Shown here piece by piece: positions 1 to 35,513 of a DNA stretch of 64,000 bases (position 1 is the stretch's first letter; every line of letters starts with the position of its first letter). Source of the stretch: Candidatus Heimdallarchaeum aukensis. GTDB lineage: Archaea; Asgardarchaeota; Heimdallarchaeia; Heimdallarchaeales; Heimdallarchaeaceae. The position numbers were made by a program, and so were the translations under genes. The notes beneath the pieces were generated by a model. The model ran no database searches, was not told the origin of the DNA, and was given only the letters and a program-made list of their open reading frames with translations. The stretch covers positions 2,176,001 through 2,240,000 of the forward strand of contig CP084166.1 of the NCBI GenBank assembly GCA_021513695.1, written 5' to 3'.

Positions 1-181
1 TCCTAAATTTCCTTCTTAAATATTTTTTCACCTCTAAACCTTTTTTCGAAAAATGAAAATAAAACTGAACTACAACAAATTTAAAATAGGCCTCTAATGT
101 CTTATTTACTTGGAGAAAACCGTGCGGTTAGTTAGCTATTTCCGCTTCCTTTCGGTAAATTATTCTCTGGACATTGTGTAG

Positions 182-883
182 GTGGTCTGTATGGCAATTG
201 AAAAAGGAACAATGCTTAAACTTAATTACATCGGAAAAAGAAAATCAGATAATTATGTGTTTGATACAACATTGGAAGATGTTGCAAAGAAAGAAGGAAT
301 TTATGATGAGAAAGTGATTTACAAACCTTGTCTAGTAGTAATTGGAAAGCATTGGATGCCTGTAGGGTTGGAAGAACAATTAATTGGACTTAACGAGGGC
401 GATAAGAAAACAATTGAAGTAGAGGCAAAGCAAGCTTTTGGACTTCACGATAGGTCTAAAATCCGTCTAATTCAGAGACGAGAGTTTCAAAAGTTAGATA
501 TTAAGCCAAAAGCTGGCATGGAGGTTGAGATTACTGGTCAAAAAGGGCGAATTATGAAAGTTGACTCTTCAAGAGTGAAGGTTGATTTTAACCACCCCTT
601 AGCAGGAGAGGATGTAGTGTATGAAGTAGAGATAGTAAAAATTATCACAGATGTAAAAGAACAATTTGTTGCGCTATTAGAACGAAGACTGCCTGGAATT
701 GACTTTTCTGGAACAAAAATTGAAATAGAAGGAAAGATTCTTGTAGTTGAACTTCCTCCTCATTCAAGGTTCCTTGAATATATTCAGTTTACAAAAAATG
801 CAGTAACACGCGATATATCAGAATTCGTTAAAAACAAAATAGATAAAGTAAAATTCATTGAATTCTATGATATCGATAAATGA
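182..883 (+). CDS. FKBP-type peptidyl-prolyl cis-trans isomerase (archaeal long-type FKBP/SlyD-like)
   Basis: The 233-aa ORF has an N-terminal FKBP fold signature (KGTMLKLNYIGK...VFDTT...IGKHWMPVGLEEQLIGLNEGDKKTIEV) followed by an insert-in-flap/C-terminal domain, typical of archaeal 26-kDa FKBPs. Confidence 0.8.
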   Translation: MVCMAIEKGTMLKLNYIGKRKSDNYVFDTTLEDVAKKEGIYDEKVIYKPCLVVIGKHWMPVGLEEQLIGLNEGDKKTIEVEAKQAFGLHDRSKIRLIQRREFQKLDIKPKAGMEVEITGQKGRIMKVDSSRVKVDFNHPLAGEDVVYEVEIVKIITDVKEQFVALLERRLPGIDFSGTKIEIEGKILVVELPPHSRFLEYIQFTKNAVTRDISEFVKNKIDKVKFIEFYDIDK

Positions 884-890
884 GCTGTTA

Positions 891-1334
891 CTATTCTTGT
901 TTTTCTACTTCCACTTCCACTAGATCATAGCCTAATGGGCAATCAACTTTTTTGAACTCTTTTTTTATCTTGACTTTTCTAAATCCTTGTTCAAGATCTC
1001 TAATACACTTTTCATAGTTTTCACAGAAAATCTCGTCACATTCAATTGGTTCTATTGTTAAAGTTAGTCCTTCCATCACTGGAAGATTCTTTTCTTTTTT
1101 TATTATTATAACCGGGTTTATTTCCTCAACTTTACAAACGACCATCTTTGTTTCATCAATAAGACAAACATGTTCCTTCTTCTTTATTTCAACCACTTTG
1201 TAATTTTTGCCTTTTACTAAAGCATCAATACAAACTGATCTCAGTTTACATTGGGCGCATTCTGGCAGTTCCCCAACATGAGAAAAAACGTAACCAAGGT
1301 TAGCAACGTTCTTTGGGATAAGTGTAATTTTCAT
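891..1334 (-). CDS. UPF0179-family small archaeal protein with conserved Cys pairs
   Basis: The 147-aa ORF reads MKITLIPKNVANLGYVFSHVGELPECAQCKLRSVC... with a C-terminal CxxxxC...CP pattern, resembling the archaeal UPF0179 family. Function is unknown. Confidence 0.45.
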   Translation of the reverse strand: MKITLIPKNVANLGYVFSHVGELPECAQCKLRSVCIDALVKGKNYKVVEIKKKEHVCLIDETKMVVCKVEEINPVIIIKKEKNLPVMEGLTLTIEPIECDEIFCENYEKCIRDLEQGFRKVKIKKEFKKVDCPLGYDLVEVEVEKQE

Positions 1335-1454
1335 GAATGGTTTTTTTGTAAAAATTTTATAAAGTTTAGGAAAGAAGGAAAATTAATTGAGTTTTTTATA
1401 GAAAAAAGAATAAAATCCGGTGATGACGGTTTTATAATTCTTATATGATGTCTC

Positions 1455-1520
1455 TACTAGACTATCAAGGACTATCGATAGTGATAGAGTACTATCAGAA
1501 CTATCATTGATATCATCATT
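1455..1520. promoter_or_regulatory. Array of direct ACTATC repeats plus inverted GATAG copies in the divergent intergenic region between the UPF0179 and PUA genes
   Basis: ACTATC occurs at 1461, 1471, 1491 and 1500, and GATAG (the reverse complement of CTATC) at 1477 and 1483. Spacings of about 10, 20 and 9 bp match helical phasing, and the array sits between two divergently oriented starts. Confidence 0.3.
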
Positions 1521-1617
1521 GAATTAATCTTTCTTTTGTGCAAAAAGTGAAATTTGTTTCTGTCGAAGAATATAAATACGTATCTTACTCCTTTTTTTTG
1601 AAATTAACAAATTAATT

Positions 1618-2127
1618 TTGTGTATTCCAATGAAGTTAAAGAAAAGAAATTTCTTATCAAATAAAGAAAAAAAGAAATTGTATGAAGAATTATCCTCTAC
1701 ATTTGGTGATAAAGCTTTTCACTTTTTTAATAAAAATGACAAACTTGAATCCGCTATCTCTGACAAAGGAGAAAAATTGATATTGAAAGATGGTAGGATC
1801 TGGTTTTTTTATTATAATGATAAGTTATATCCTACAATTCGATGTCTAAGAGGAACAGGAATTGATATTTCTTCAGCTGTTGTAGACATTGGAGCTATTA
1901 AATTTATTCTAAATGGTGCGGATATTATGGCTCCAGGAGTCATTTCTTTTGAAAGTGGGATAAAAGCTGGTGATTTTATTACTGTTAAAGAAGAAAAAGC
2001 TAAAAGCATCATAGCTGTTGGGCTATCTTTAATTAACTCGGAAGATTTTGATAAAGGAAAGAAAGGTAAGATAATAAAAAATCTTCACTCACTAAAGGAT
2101 GAATATTGGAACTTTCAACTAGATTAA
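1618..2127 (+). CDS. PUA-domain protein (MCT-1/Tma20-like, DUF1947+PUA)
   Basis: The 169-aa ORF has a C-terminal PUA-like segment (GADIMAPGVISFESGIKAGDFITVKEE...IAVGLSL). The true start may be the internal MKLKK at 1633. Confidence 0.55.
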   Translation: MCIPMKLKKRNFLSNKEKKKLYEELSSTFGDKAFHFFNKNDKLESAISDKGEKLILKDGRIWFFYYNDKLYPTIRCLRGTGIDISSAVVDIGAIKFILNGADIMAPGVISFESGIKAGDFITVKEEKAKSIIAVGLSLINSEDFDKGKKGKIIKNLHSLKDEYWNFQLD

Positions 2128-2205
2128 AACATCTTTTGTTTAATTTTTGCAATTTAAAACTTGGAATGAAAACTATTATAAGTTTAATAAATAAATAACT
2201 TTTGC

Positions 2206-3276
2206 ATGACAGATGTAATAAATGAGTTTAAACATGTTGAAATGCCTCAGCTCTTATCTCTTGGAAAAAACATGATTAGTGAATTCCCACAAATTTTGGA
2301 AATACTGAATATTGGCAAAAGTTGTGTCTTAATCACTGATAAATTTCTAAAGGATAAGTTTGCTAAACAAGCTAAAGAAATTCTTGAAAATAGTGGTGTA
2401 AATGTCACTCTATCTACAATTGATGACAGTACTTTAACAGAAGTTGACAAACAGCTTACTATTATCAATGAAACAAAATCAGAATTTGTTATCGGTATGG
2501 GTGGAGGAAGACCAATAGATGTCGCAAAATTATCTTCTTTTAAAGCTGGGTTAAGATTTATTTCTGTTCCTACTATCGCTAGTCACGATGGTATTGCTAG
2601 CTCCAGAGCTTCTCTAAAAGGGGTTAATGAAAGGCATTCTGTATCTGCAAGACCTCCAATAGCTGTAGTTGCAGATACAGAAATATTAGATAAATCACCT
2701 TATCGTTTTACCGCTGCTGGGTGTGGGGATATTTTAGCTAAAAAAACTGCAATCAAAGACTGGTTACTTGCGTACAGATTGAAATATGAACCAATTTCTC
2801 CAACAGCCATCTCTCTGTCAGAAATGACTGTACAGTCAATCACCGAAAATGCTAGCATAATAAGAAGTAAAGCAGAAGGATACAGTCGAATAGTTGTTAA
2901 TGCTTTGTTAAGCAGCTCTCTTGCTATGTGTGTAGCAGGTTCCTCAAGACCTGGAAGTGGTGCAGAGCATATGTTTAGTCATGCCCTCGATGAAATAGCT
3001 GAAAAACCAGCTCTACATGGAGAGCAAACAGCACTAGGATCCATCATAATGTCTTATCTCCACGAAGGAGAAAAAGGCTCTCAAAAACAAATAGAAACAA
3101 TGAAAATTATAGGCTTACCAGTAACTGCAAAGGAATTAGGAATAAAAGATGAAGAGATAATTAAAGCTCTAGAGATTGCTCACAAAATTAGACAAAGGTT
3201 TACAATTTTAGGCTCTGATGGTTTAACACATGAAGCTGCTGTTAATGCGGCTCTAAAAACAGGTGTTATTAGCTAA
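2206..3276 (+). CDS. egsA: Glycerol-1-phosphate dehydrogenase [NAD(P)+]
   Basis: The 356-aa ORF carries the GGGRPIDVAK nucleotide-binding motif and HDGIASSRASL, and has iron-containing ADH-like topology. This is the archaeal lipid-backbone enzyme family. Confidence 0.85.
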   Translation: MTDVINEFKHVEMPQLLSLGKNMISEFPQILEILNIGKSCVLITDKFLKDKFAKQAKEILENSGVNVTLSTIDDSTLTEVDKQLTIINETKSEFVIGMGGGRPIDVAKLSSFKAGLRFISVPTIASHDGIASSRASLKGVNERHSVSARPPIAVVADTEILDKSPYRFTAAGCGDILAKKTAIKDWLLAYRLKYEPISPTAISLSEMTVQSITENASIIRSKAEGYSRIVVNALLSSSLAMCVAGSSRPGSGAEHMFSHALDEIAEKPALHGEQTALGSIIMSYLHEGEKGSQKQIETMKIIGLPVTAKELGIKDEEIIKALEIAHKIRQRFTILGSDGLTHEAAVNAALKTGVIS

Positions 3277-3414
3277 CTAGATTAAATGTAGTTTGAAGTA
3301 TTTAAAATAGAAAAGTCTGGAAAATATACACTTTACTGAATAGTAAGCTTAAGGCAATTTTCACAAATAGTTAATTAGAGCTCCTTTAAACTCTCAAGTT
3401 GACTTTAATTTGTA

Positions 3415-4863
3415 CTAAAAAGCATCTGTGTAAAGTTTTTCTAATTTTACGATAAAATCAGACCCACTAGGATAATTGTCTTGAAGAAAAATTTCTCCTC
3501 CAAAAGTATCTAAAGTTATTTTGATGAGGAAAAGGTTCATACCCCCTTTGTATAATCTCTTTTTATAATCTCTATGAAAAATTTCTTTTTTTTCTTTACT
3601 TGGTATTCCAATACCGTTATCCTTCACATGTACGAAAACATAGTTTTCTTTTTCCTCAACTTCAATCCAAACTTTAGCATTCTCTCCCGCATGGTGAACT
3701 GCGTTGCTTATTAACCCATAAAAAACAGAAAAAAGGAATTTATTTGCTTTTACAAAGATTTCTTTGTCCAATCCATACACGCACACATTTTCGAAAGCTA
3801 CTGCTGCAGCTTGTAAAACTTTTAGACTTATTGGTTTAATTTTGTCATCTACTAAAAATCCTTCTACAGCACCGATGTTAAATATTTTCTCTCTCATTTT
3901 TTTAATTCTATCAATTATCATCTCTTTAAACATAGAATCATTAGATTCAGAAAACATTTCTATGGCCGTCTCTATTACTGCAAGATCATTACGTAAATCT
4001 TGTTTCATTACATTAGTAAATGTTACAAGTTGTTTATTTACTCTATCAAGTTCCTCATAAAGCAAACGATATTGCTGTCTTTCTTGAATTATAGCAGAGA
4101 CCGTTTTAAAATTTAGGATATTTTGTTTAGATAAGATAATCCCTATTAGAATTGTACCTAAATATAAAAGATTGAATCCCCTGTAAATTTGCAAAAATAT
4201 CTCTCTTTGAAAGATTAAATACTTGAAAAAATAATAATCGCTAACAGTGAGCATAAGGTATGAAATAATCAAAAGCCCCCAATAATTTTGAGATCTCTTT
4301 GAATATATTGTAAAAAGAATTAAGAGGAGAATAAAAAAGGTAAAATCAAAAACCAAGAAAACTAGTAAAATGAATAGATCAAATTTTATTAGATGGTTGT
4401 TAGAAGCTATTTGAGAAAAATTGTTAACAATTTGAACAAAAAAGTCAAGGTATTGAACACTTAACAATAAACCGATAAAAATAGTCATCAATATTTGCTC
4501 ATAAAGATTTTTAAAATCATTCACGATTTGCTGGAAAATGATGAATAAAACTGGTATATAGCTAATGAATAAAATAGAATTCGCTAAAGAAAAAGAAATA
4601 GAATTAGCAAAAATTGAACTAATGATGAGAGAAACTTGAGAAAGCAAAACAAAAAACATAGACATTCCCAAAGCTTTAACAAAAATTTTCAGATTTCTAT
4701 CATGTATTCTTTTTGTAGAAAGACCAAGAACGCAAGCAGTACAAGAAATTACTAGGGTGCTTAGAAACAAAATACAATTTCCAACATTTTTTTTAAAAAT
4801 GGCGCTTAAAACAGCAATAGTATAAAGTAATGAACTTATTATCAGTATAGTGATGCGTTTCAT
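3415..4863 (-). CDS. Membrane-bound sensor histidine kinase
   Basis: The 482-aa ORF has about 8 N-terminal TM helices, a coiled-coil/DHp-like segment and a C-terminal HATPase_c (LISNAVHHAG...VKDNGIGIP...GGMNLFLIK...GGEIFL). Confidence 0.7.
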   Translation of the reverse strand: MKRITILIISSLLYTIAVLSAIFKKNVGNCILFLSTLVISCTACVLGLSTKRIHDRNLKIFVKALGMSMFFVLLSQVSLIISSIFANSISFSLANSILFISYIPVLFIIFQQIVNDFKNLYEQILMTIFIGLLLSVQYLDFFVQIVNNFSQIASNNHLIKFDLFILLVFLVFDFTFFILLLILFTIYSKRSQNYWGLLIISYLMLTVSDYYFFKYLIFQREIFLQIYRGFNLLYLGTILIGIILSKQNILNFKTVSAIIQERQQYRLLYEELDRVNKQLVTFTNVMKQDLRNDLAVIETAIEMFSESNDSMFKEMIIDRIKKMREKIFNIGAVEGFLVDDKIKPISLKVLQAAAVAFENVCVYGLDKEIFVKANKFLFSVFYGLISNAVHHAGENAKVWIEVEEKENYVFVHVKDNGIGIPSKEKKEIFHRDYKKRLYKGGMNLFLIKITLDTFGGEIFLQDNYPSGSDFIVKLEKLYTDAF

Positions 4864-5292
4864 ACTATCATTTTGTATTCAATTTGGATTTTAATAGTCA
4901 AATAACTAAATAAAGTTACTGCTCTAAATTGAGAAAAAATAGACTATTGAGTTCAAATAAACTACTAATGGTACTTTTACCTTCTTTTTTTCTGTTGATA
5001 AACACTTTTTAGTCTAGTAAGGAATAAATTACTACTGAGTAAAAAGAAGACTCAAAGAATCTTATTATTAAAGAATTATCGCTGAATTAACTGAATTTTT
5101 TCAATAAATCTTAGATGTTTTGTTACAGGAAATTAGAAAATACACTACTATAGTACTATTTGCTTTAATTGAAAAATTCTCTATTATATAATTAAATCCA
5201 TTGAAACGATAAAGTGAACATAGTGAGGAGCAGAAGTAAAGAATTTGTTGTTTTTTAAAATACTTTAAATATTTATATTACTATTATGAATT

Positions 5293-5454
5293 ATGACCTT
5301 AGAGGTAATCGCTGTTCGTTTACCAGAAAAAATTGTTTCAAGATTAGACCTCCTAGTTTCTCAAAAAGGATATACCTCTCGTGGAGAAATTATACGCGAT
5401 GCTCTACGTTATTACTATATTAATCACTTTTCCAAAAAAAATGAAGAGAAATAA
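5293..5454 (+). CDS. Ribbon-helix-helix (CopG/NikR-like) small DNA-binding protein
   Basis: The ORF track's 60-aa cutoff hides a 53-aa ORF, MTLEVIAVRLPEKIVSRLDLLVSQKGYTSRGEIIRDALRYYYINHFSKKNEEK. It shows the classic RHH pattern: a beta-strand (IAVRLPE), helix A (RLDLLV), G, helix B (RGEIIRDALR). Confidence 0.45.
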   Translation: MTLEVIAVRLPEKIVSRLDLLVSQKGYTSRGEIIRDALRYYYINHFSKKNEEK

Positions 5455-8490: not shown

Positions 8491-8871
8491 ATGGTTCCGC
8501 CAAAAGAAGATGAATATACAGATAACCCAAGGTTAACTAAGGCTTTTAAACGATTAGAGAAAAAATTGACCATTGAAATACTCTTTCTTTGGGTGATTAG
8601 ACTTTTAAAAGATGGTCCTAAATATGCATATGAACTAAAACAAGAATTTCAAGACCGTTTTGGTTTTAGTCCTGCCACTGTAACAAATTATACTGTATTG
8701 TATCTATTAGAAAAAGAGGGTATAGTTAAACGAACCGAAGTTGTAGTAGATGATGAAAGAATTGATAGAAAATATTATGCATTAACAGAGTTAGGCGAAA
8801 AATTGTTTGATGAGTGCAAAATCTTTTTAGAGAATACATTTTCAGTCTTATTCTCTGACCTAAAGTCTTAA
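8491..8871 (+). CDS. PadR-family winged-helix transcriptional regulator
   Basis: The 126-aa ORF contains GPKYAYELKQEFQDRFGFSPATVTNYTVLYLLEKEGIVKRTEVVVDDERIDRKYYALTELGEKLF, the PadR signature (GYEL...G.lYP.L..LE..G...). Confidence 0.6.
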   Translation: MVPPKEDEYTDNPRLTKAFKRLEKKLTIEILFLWVIRLLKDGPKYAYELKQEFQDRFGFSPATVTNYTVLYLLEKEGIVKRTEVVVDDERIDRKYYALTELGEKLFDECKIFLENTFSVLFSDLKS

Positions 8872-34328: not shown

Positions 34329-35513
34329 TTAGACAATGAGTAGTTCCTCTCTAGCTTTCTTCAACACTTCTTCAACCATAAATTCAAATGAATCTTTCCA
34401 TGAGAGGGTCCTGAAAGAAAAATTCCTTGGGTCAAAACTTTTTGTGATGTAACTTTGTGGGTCGATTACCATTATTTGAAGAGCAGGGAACATTGACCAG
34501 AGTAGGTTTATTAGTCGCATTTTTTCACTAGGCGGAAGAAGAATCTTCCACAAAAACCCATCATCTGTCTGCCTAAAGTCAGAATCAAAGGGTAATGAAA
34601 GATTCTGAAGAAGATACACAATTTTGGTTAGTGCTCTAGTACCACAAATCACTTTAAATATAAGATCATCCTGCAAACCGTAAAATTGTGGGTCAAATTT
34701 TACCAAATAGTTTCGGATGACATTTTCTTGAAGAAACTTTATTCTTCGTGATAGAGTATATTCTGGAATGTCTAATTCTTTAGCAATGTCTGCATTTTTC
34801 TTATTTGTATCTTCCAATAATTCTTTTAAAATCTGAAAATCCTCGTAATGCATCCTTGAAAGGATATTTTTTGCTTTCTCTCGGATTATTTTTTGAAGAG
34901 AAAAAAAAGCTGGTACATAATCTACACTATCAATATTCTTCTCCCATAGATCCCAGTTAAAATTAGTGAATTCGTTAGTTTTAGGGTCCCAATATTCAAG
35001 GTTTAATCTAGTTTTAATTCCATTACCAATATAATAAGAGTGGACAATTTCTTTGATAAGATCATGGATTTTTAAGTACTCTAAGAAAGTAAAAATGTTA
35101 TCAACAGAATTAGCTGGAATATGAACCTTTAACATTATACCGTTTATTGCACCATAGCACCTACTCTGTTGAACTAGATAAGGTTGAAACTGCAAAACTC
35201 GTTCTAAAACTTGTAATTTATCTCTAGATTCAACTCGAAGTAGAAAAATATGACTTTCTAGACCTAAGGCCTCAGGATAATATTCAGCATGAAAACCTTT
35301 GATAAAACCTTTCTCCATCAAAGAATTTAGCTTTTTTTTGACAGTAGGTGGGCTAAGATTAACTTCTTTTGCCAATTTTGAGTAAGAAAATTTTGGCTCT
35401 TGAAATATACTCTTTAATATGGTATACTCGTCTTCTGAAAGATATTTAGACGCAAAAGAGCTCATTTTTAGACAAAGGGAGAGAAATTTAATGTTTTTAT
35501 TCTTTGTCCACAA
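34329..35513 (-). CDS. Transcriptional regulator with two Lrp/AsnC-type HTH modules
   Basis: The HTH segments are YSKLAKEVNLSPPTVKKKLNSLMEKGFIKGF and NADIAKELDIPEYTLSRRIKFLQENVIRNY. Confidence 0.45.
   Translation of the reverse strand: MWTKNKNIKFLSLCLKMSSFASKYLSEDEYTILKSIFQEPKFSYSKLAKEVNLSPPTVKKKLNSLMEKGFIKGFHAEYYPEALGLESHIFLLRVESRDKLQVLERVLQFQPYLVQQSRCYGAINGIMLKVHIPANSVDNIFTFLEYLKIHDLIKEIVHSYYIGNGIKTRLNLEYWDPKTNEFTNFNWDLWEKNIDSVDYVPAFFSLQKIIREKAKNILSRMHYEDFQILKELLEDTNKKNADIAKELDIPEYTLSRRIKFLQENVIRNYLVKFDPQFYGLQDDLIFKVICGTRALTKIVYLLQNLSLPFDSDFRQTDDGFLWKILLPPSEKMRLINLLWSMFPALQIMVIDPQSYITKSFDPRNFSFRTLSWKDSFEFMVEEVLKKAREELLIV

Follow-up and report, generated by a model that had tools for sequence, protein, structure and literature searches.

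The spacer between two divergently transcribed genes of Candidatus Heimdallarchaeum aukensis holds a short and dense array of ACTATC and GATAG repeats. The question raised by this locus is whether the repeats form a site for a multimeric DNA-binding protein, as the original prediction proposed, or whether they serve another function, or none. The window analyzed is the whole 64-kb stretch of DNA in which the array lies. The genome of Ca. H. aukensis has been described in a paper without binding or expression data (PMC8813620), and nothing was found in a literature search for Heimdallarchaeum promoters and transcriptomes.

Flanking Genes and Layout of the Spacer

The two genes predicted to border the array were both confirmed. 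The UPF0179 gene (891–1334, minus strand, start at 1334; PF03684, E 9e-30) diverges from the gene of a DUF1947+PUA protein (1630–2127, plus strand; PF01472 and PF09183), which begins with the ATG at 1630 and encodes 165 aa, the length called for the product in the orthologous loci too. The relatives of the PUA protein in the PDB include PH0734, APE0525, human MCTS1 (E 9e-14) and eIF2D, and the protein is homologous to MCT-1/Tma20 of eukaryotes and to the N-terminal part of eIF2D. As predicted, the array (1462–1514, no strand assigned) is non-coding and lies between divergent genes. The array is not symmetric between the two genes: it is part of a conserved block on the PUA side, and toward UPF0179 the spacer sequence has diverged. 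The PUA gene is the most likely target of any control exerted by the array.

Several promoter-like elements accompany the array. On its left, a TATA-like box, TTTTATAA (1430–1437, plus strand), was assigned by consensus and conservation as a candidate upstream promoter, P1. The letters TTTTAT of this box (1430–1435) are invariant in the three lineages compared below, inside an otherwise diverged stretch, and start 26–32 nt 5′ of the first CTATC. At the usual archaeal distance between TATA box and start site, a transcript from this box would begin at about 1459–1462, the edge of the array. On the right, a less conserved spacer (1515–1545, no strand assigned) lies between the array and the PUA core promoter block. 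Within this spacer is a T-rich run, TTTCTTTT (1530–1537), which could terminate a short transcript and which is weaker in the other lineages (CTTCTTTG and CTCTTTAG).

The second conserved block (1546–1629, plus strand, 92% identity) contains promoter elements assigned by consensus. It opens with the invariant GTGAAATTTGTTT (1546–1558), followed by a purine-rich, BRE-like CGAAGA (1564–1569) and by the PUA TATA box, ATATAAATA (1570–1578). These two make a good BRE/TATA pair, and the array lies 56 bp upstream of this TATA box. By the same consensus the PUA start site is predicted near 1600, with a leader of about 30 nt, and the array would occupy about −138 to −86 relative to it.

Anatomy of the Array

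The stretch 1455–1520 reads TACTAGACTATCAAGGACTATCGATAGTGATAGAGTACTATCAGAACTATCATTGATATCATCAT. The four plus-strand copies of ACTATC were found exactly where they had been predicted (1461, 1471, 1491 and 1500), as were the two inverted copies of GATAG (1477 and 1483), with start-to-start spacings of 10, 6, 6, 8 and 9 bp. The complement of the full hexamer ACTATC occurs on the plus strand at 1477. The array as a whole consists of seven CTATC(A)/(T)GATAG units in 53 bp. Units 1 and 2 (1462–1466 and 1472–1476) read CTATC, units 3 and 4 (1477–1481 and 1483–1487) read GATAG, units 5 and 6 (1492–1496 and 1501–1505) read CTATC again, and unit 7 (1509–1514) is a degenerate GATATC palindrome, which gives the orientations − − + + − − +/− along the plus strand. 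When all of them are written in a single orientation, units 1–4 are cttGATAGtct, atcGATAGtcc, atcGATAGtga and agtGATAGagt, units 5–7 are tctGATAGtac, aatGATAGttc and attGATATcat, and the consensus of the seven is TGATAGT.

The core centers lie at 1464, 1474, 1479, 1485, 1494, 1503 and 1511.5, so the spacing from center to center is irregular (10, 5, 6, 9, 9 and 8 bp), and the spacers within inverted core pairs measure 0, 3 and 4 bp. The longest family of direct repeats in the array is 9 nt long, and the constrained cores are 5–6 nt long. Alternatively, the array can be described as an imperfect inverted repeat centered on 1489/1490, with TATCGATAGTGATAG as its left arm and CTATC-aga-ACTATC-att-GATA as its right arm, plus one additional direct copy at 1462.

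Conservation in Heimdallarchaeum Lineages

The array was compared among orthologous loci of three lineages. The aukensis-like loci were those of the window, L084 and L085; the endolithica loci were those of Ca. H. endolithica PR6 and of near-identical MAG and metagenome contigs (L001, L081–L083 and L087–L089); and the third lineage was represented by L086, from an ENA metagenome, with a UPF0179 protein 88% identical. The original prediction had proposed looking for the array at orthologous PUA/UPF0179 loci, and it was retained there in all three Heimdallarchaeum lineages recovered. It was absent from 79 PUA loci of other archaea, where the adjacency of UPF0179 was absent too, and therefore it is not ancient.

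Between the window and PR6, the array (1462–1514) is 94% identical (50/53), versus 66% (292/443) at the fourfold-degenerate sites of five flanking genes. The binomial probability of at least 50 identities in 53 positions at the neutral rate of 0.66 is 1e-6. In the same comparison, the PUA core promoter with its leader (1546–1632) is 92% identical, the stretch directly after the array (1515–1545) 68%, and the UPF0179 side of the spacer (1335–1425) 52%, with indels; spacers without evident constraint (the egsA–kinase spacer and the region 5′ of the kinase gene) reach 46–54%. Across the three lineages and the L084 variant, the variable positions of the array are 1469, 1471, 1472, 1498, 1499 and 1500. 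Variation thus affects 5 of the 17 positions between cores versus 1 of the 36 core positions (Fisher p = 0.010), and the change G1469A in L084 is an intraspecific polymorphism within the array.

These comparisons establish, at the level of sequence, that this non-coding element is under selective constraint, with purifying selection acting on its cores. As a cis-element it has statistical support, is constrained in evolution and is confined to the genus Heimdallarchaeum. Since the substitutions sit between the motifs and not inside them, CTATC(A)/(T)GATAG, in seven copies, is the constrained unit. The original prediction had taken the hexamer ACTATC as the unit, but its leading A varies among A, G and T in the lineages; as read from the aligned loci, the constrained unit is the pentamer CTATC, mostly with a trailing A (equivalent to TGATAG).

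The same alignment bears on the possibility that the repeats are a by-product of Tyr codons in a small ORF (1445–1510, MMSLLDYQGLSIVIEYYQNYH*), acting as a uORF or encoding a micro-peptide before the MCT-1 homolog. In the aukensis and endolithica lineages this frame has an ATG and is open, one frame accommodates three of the four ACTATC copies, and two of the three array substitutions between the window and PR6 are synonymous (GGA>GGG and CTA>TTA). Against this, L086 lacks any in-frame ATG, the ATGs of PR6 and L081 differ and are non-homologous owing to a 1-nt indel, and the two synonymous changes are outnumbered by non-synonymous ones (N>F in L086, G>R in L084, Q>H and D>S/C). Moreover, there is no ribosome-binding site, the gene callers omit 1445–1510 on long contigs, and coding would leave the inverted GATAG copies unexplained. 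A coding origin is very improbable, and by its sequence L086 already largely refutes it.

Clustering and Helical Phase

The hexamer ACTATC is not enriched in the 64-kb window as a whole, with 35 copies found versus 29.7 expected; it is the local density that sets the array apart. The array holds six copies of CTATC/GATAG within 60 nt, versus three at most elsewhere in the window, and eight copies of TATC/GATA within 60 nt, versus five at most elsewhere. When every 5-mer or every 6-mer was scored with an adjustment for its own frequency, so as to allow for free choice of the word, the array was the top cluster of the window for both word lengths.

These counts also bear on the view that the array is a chance cluster, or a recent local duplication without function. 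In its favor, when no adjustment for frequency was made, at least six copies of some pentamer within 55 nt were obtained in 13 of 200 second-order Markov simulations (6.5%). The frequency-adjusted extremeness of the array, by contrast, was reached in only 1 of 100 such simulations, and the excess of identity over the neutral rate described above, seen in three lineages with diverged flanks, already contradicts this view, which can hardly be credited.

The copies on the same strand follow a period of 9.6–9.8 bp (R 0.96–0.98, Monte Carlo p about 0.01–0.02); at 10.5 bp their R is 0.58–0.78, and for all seven centers at 10.5 bp it is 0.33. The claim that the repeats are helically phased holds for the same-strand copies, at a period of about 9.7 bp, but not for the inverted copies, which are out of phase.

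Proposed Protein Binding at the Array

The array is predicted to bind a protein and to serve the MCT-1/Tma20-like PUA gene as an operator or upstream element, a reading to which we give about an even chance. One sequence-specific DNA-binding protein would recognize the core (T)GATAG / CTATC(A), with several protomers on a composite site, and with same-strand cores every 9–10 bp these protomers would lie largely on one face of the DNA, possibly bound cooperatively. The array might then act as an upstream element that modulates the recruitment of TBP/TFB at the PUA promoter, or the bound protein might occlude the start site of the upstream promoter (1430–1437) in the usual manner of archaeal repressors. 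That a protein binds here is inferred, as are the promoters assigned above and the direction in which regulation would go. The original prediction had seen in the array the signature of a multimeric binding site; the anatomy does fit several protomers, but the Lrp and TrmB families named with it were not supported. The best anatomical fit would be a ribbon-helix-helix (RHH) or winged-helix protein, as a candidate, bound as multiple dimers.

A site at the DNA level is favored by the period of about 10 bp among same-strand copies, by the contiguity of the array with a conserved promoter, and by short cores of mixed orientation without a single stable fold; copies in both orientations suit reading by dimers. 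The invariance of the cores, set against the variability of the spacers, likewise argues for a protein site, although it does not distinguish this reading from an RNA one because a bulged hairpin would equally show invariant cores and variable spacers. Against it, no single dimer geometry accounts for all the units, given the irregular core spacing and the inverted-pair spacers of 0, 3 and 4 bp. A position 86–138 bp upstream of the predicted start site lies beyond that of most characterized archaeal operators, which argues against an operator.

Operators built of repeats are ordinary and familiar features of promoter regions that leave current understanding unchallenged, and the array is predicted to be a new instance of such a feature, most likely an operator or upstream binding array. 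To our knowledge, experiments have yet to define a transcription-factor binding site in any Asgard archaeon. Because the array is sharply delimited and constrained, with cores distinguishable from spacers, the region of about 1455–1520 is a ready probe for Asgard transcription-factor binding experiments. MCT-1/Tma20, the eukaryotic counterpart of the likely target, acts in the reinitiation of translation and the recycling of ribosomes.

Possible Transcription and Folding of the Array

As the main alternative, the array might be transcribed rightward from the TATA-like box at 1430–1437 and act as an RNA-level element. It would then be either a non-coding sRNA of about 60–75 nt, ending at the T-rich run (1530–1537), or the 5′ portion of an extended leader of the PUA gene, with the CUAUC/GAUAG units forming an extended imperfect hairpin, mutually exclusive hairpins, or repeated sites for an RNA-binding protein. 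We regard this as possible but doubtful.

The invariant TTTTAT upstream and the T-rich run downstream of the array both suit such a transcript. However, the TATA-like box is weak (TTTATGAG in two lineages) and without a clear BRE, and the other lineages carry a short, degraded T-run. RNAalifold gave a hairpin of 21–22 pairs centered on 1489/1490 (−10.7 to −12.2 kcal/mol), with the variable positions 1498–1500 in predicted bulges, and the PR6 version folds at z = −1.98. The corresponding z-scores for the window are −0.31, −0.78 and −1.18 to −1.36, and the minimum-energy structures vary among the lineages. Folding that is not clearly better than that of shuffled sequence, into structures that differ by lineage, leans toward a DNA site.

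The covariation in the three lineages was also considered. The inner 16 pairs are invariant and hence uninformative, and in the outer stem there are wobble changes on one side of a pair as well as some broken pairs. A predicted pair is also broken by A1500T in L086. Two of the changes, A1471G (facing U1516) and C1517U (facing G1470), are wobble-compatible when read on the plus strand but not on the other, which lends the RNA reading slight support. On the other side, double compensatory changes were found in 0 of 22 pairs, and the covariation term, +0.24, is unfavorable. In an Rfam cmscan over 1–4000, with E values up to 10, only noise was obtained at the array, the best match being nse_sRNA (24 bits versus a gathering score of 75; E 0.48). 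The lack of compensatory base-pair changes in these three lineages and of an Rfam family match leans the same way.

Known classes of small RNA were examined as well. ARAGORN detected no tRNA or tmRNA at the array. For a C/D-box sRNA (C box RUGAUGA, D box CUGA, guide spacing of about 12 nt), the minus strand offers AUGAUGA (1513–1519) and CUGA (1495–1498), 14 nt apart and with no terminal D box; the boxes are mutated in PR6 (AUGAUAU and AUGA) and are not kept in PR6 or L086, and this candidate was rejected. An H/ACA sRNA was also rejected, with no ACA found 3′ of the hairpin in any lineage.

A more specific form of this idea would be an undescribed sRNA or leader, starting from the 1430–1437 box, that forms exclusive hairpins or a multi-site platform for an RNA-binding protein, with the PUA MCT-1/Tma20 homolog as a conceivable partner. 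This form is improbable. If it were true, and with the PUA protein as the partner, it would amount to an autoregulatory RNA–protein loop around a factor for translation reinitiation or recycling, in an archaeon closely related to eukaryotes.

Search for Further Copies of the Array

The original prediction had envisaged a regulon defined by further copies of the motif, and no sign of one was seen in the sequence covered. Of the 30 ACTATC copies outside the array, 4 are non-coding, in line with the 14% of the window that is non-coding. No cluster of at least four cores was found elsewhere in the 64-kb window, and its other intergenic regions contain no paired cores and no enrichment of the hexamer. 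In 20.5 kb of the endolithica-like lineage (L087), the orthologous array was the only one detected. A metagenome scan with a pattern of 20 specified bases yielded only one further endolithica-like orthologue, in a collection that is not exhaustive: the JGI contig behind L084, of the same sequence, was missed by the scan. Viral copies were also considered, and a 17-mer matched 17 contigs; these are apparently unrelated and without extended similarity, and the candidate was dropped. As far as could be seen, the array is not a repeated or mobile element.

The absence of a second site in the 64 kb of the window and the 20.5 kb of the sister lineage disfavors a protein site, and it would be unusual for a regulator to be devoted to one remote target. 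A single-copy locus would suit an RNA gene better than a regulon operator. It is also consistent with another function of a unique DNA site, for example in segregation (as a centromere-like site), in the binding of a nucleoid-associated or architectural protein, or as an intrinsically bendable or cruciform-prone insulator of both promoters. Two further features point in this direction: the long imperfect palindrome, and the short repeats phased at about 10 bp, which resemble the iterons of plasmid centromeres (as in ParR/parC systems). By contrast, no gene for a partition ATPase, Orc1/Cdc6 or a recombinase was found among the ORFs scanned, and the immediate gene neighbors of the array are those of FKBP, UPF0179, PUA, G1P dehydrogenase and a histidine kinase. 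Origin-recognition boxes and Xer/dif sites are far longer than the 5–7 bp units of the array, and the contiguity with a conserved promoter block points to gene regulation. Such a function is, on this evidence, rather unlikely.

Comparison With Known Operators

If the array is an operator, the closest systems by architecture appear to be the RHH multi-subsite operators. RHH operators use very short subsites (5–8 bp) in mixed orientation, bound cooperatively by multiple dimers over several helical turns. The operators compared were those of omega of pSM19035 (WATCACW heptads, direct and inverted), MetJ (met-boxes), P22 Arc and CopG. The array shares with them several very short subsites in both orientations, with seven direct and inverted subsites of 5–7 bp in 53 bp, or about five helical turns. 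It differs in register, which in RHH operators is strict and contiguous at 7 or 8 bp, whereas the core centers of the array are 5–10 bp apart. RHH operators also overlap the regulated promoter and usually adjoin the gene of the regulator, and the array does neither.

The Lrp/AsnC and TrmB families, to which the array had been attributed, were then compared with it. The Lrp/AsnC operators (the three-box operator of Ss-LrpB, the UAS of Ptr2, and FL11) offer a parallel in that several sites over an archaeal promoter, or upstream of it, are bound cooperatively, and Ptr2 is a precedent for an upstream activating position. However, Lrp-type boxes are AT-rich palindromes of 13–15 bp placed 2–3 helical turns apart, and in the array no 13–15 bp box recurs and the units, of 5–7 bp, are 5–10 bp apart; this attribution was discarded. 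The TrmB-family glycolytic motif of Thermococcales has the half-site letters TGATA/TATCA in common with the array, but the full motif, TATCAC-N5-GTGATA, is absent from it even at three mismatches: 34 sites with up to three mismatches were found in the window, which is the chance level, and none of them within 1440–1530. The TrmB attribution failed likewise.

The closest system by sequence, as far as the letters go, is the Tn10 tet operator, the TetR half-site TGATAG being identical to that of the array. The operator tetO1 reads ACTCTATCATTGATAGAGT. The array segment 1501–1513 (CTATCATTGATAT) and the tetO core CTATCAnTGATAG agree at 12 of 13 positions and share a central spacing of 3 nt, and AGTGATAGAG (1480–1489) is common to the array and tetO2, whose sequence, TCCCTATCAGTGATAGAGA, was confirmed in the literature (e.g., bioRxiv 10.1101/2022.10.12.511941). 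The differences are several. tetO is an isolated palindrome, whereas the array has seven units and only one pair with the TetR geometry (1501–1513), which is mismatched at a contacted G; the other six units lack this geometry. Sites resembling CTATCA-N-TGATAG are at chance level across the window (5 found versus 3.3 expected), no match to the TetR family (PF00440) was detected among 40 ORFs scanned in the window, and the host of the array is an archaeon. The likeness is probably a coincidence of a short half-site.

Candidate Regulators

The three regulators named in the original prediction do exist in the window. The PadR gene lies at 8491–8871, and that of the double Lrp-like protein, a double wHTH/AsnC-type protein of 394 aa, at 34329–35513, 33 kb from the array. 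The gene of the RHH protein (CopG family, 53 aa; PF01402, E 8e-9) lies at 5293–5454, 3.8 kb from the array. No regulator gene adjoins the array, the nearest being this one, and this disfavors a protein site and suits an RNA-level or other unique-site function. Conversely, the sister endolithica lineage has both the RHH gene (in L087) and the PadR gene at the corresponding positions, which favors a protein site. In the endolithica lineage, the gene of an ArsR-type wHTH protein (L087, 1694–2128) was also found about 8 kb upstream. UPF0179 was weighed as a DNA-binding candidate too, and no relative with a solved structure was found for it.

Finally, an autoregulatory site of the RHH protein was sought upstream of its gene. 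The palindrome ATAGTACTAT (5150–5159) was considered for this role and rejected, as it is deleted in the sister lineage. This palindrome and the array have the 8-mer AGTACTAT in common.

The UPF0179/PUA gene pair and its intergenic region

The divergent arrangement of the UPF0179 gene (window 891-1334, minus strand) and the PUA gene (ATG at 1630, plus strand) was found only in Heimdallarchaeum when 80 PUA-gene loci from diverse archaea were compared, and both this arrangement and the array of CTATC(A)/(T)GATAG units between the two genes (1462-1514) are genus-specific. The pattern scan of metagenome contigs missed L084, an aukensis-like locus (JGI contig Ga0366835_1002646), despite an exact match to the pattern on it; therefore, a negative result from that scan is no proof of absence. 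The UPF0179 protein is rich in cysteine, with a CxxC motif and further Cys pairs, and no relative of solved structure was found for it (best E 0.39).

Gene calls run across the intergenic region in the relatives, and these are spurious or over-extended: a 63-aa ORF in Ca. H. endolithica PR6 (L001, 2687-2878), a called gene of 73 aa that passes through the array on a short ENA contig (L082, 3-224), and, in the third lineage, UPF0179 as called with a 35-aa N-terminal extension (L086, 432-980).

Additionally, the sequence GTGAAATTTGTTT (1546-1558), which sits just ahead of the PUA gene's BRE/TATA elements, was unchanged across all three lineages (aukensis-like, endolithica and L086), and is a candidate for a second regulator site, distinct from the array.

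Other elements in the window

Upstream of the CopG-family RHH gene (5293-5454), the sequence ACTACTATAGTACTAT (5143-5160) contains the perfect palindrome ATAGTACTAT and has the 8-mer AGTACTAT in common with the array. The segment carrying it is missing by deletion in the endolithica-like lineage (L087), and it is therefore probably not a site related to the array.

The stretch at 61-181, ahead of the FKBP-type gene (ATG at 192), showed 90-100% identity to H. endolithica (L001, 1405-1527), reaching 97-100% in three of its four 30-nt blocks, so that its conservation is at least as high as that of coding sequence (about 90%). This stretch, possibly a structured 5' leader or regulatory element, includes the TATA-like AAATTTAAAATAGG; the leader after it, about 75 nt long, carries a pair of small CCG...CGG hairpins and the ribosome-binding site GGTGG.
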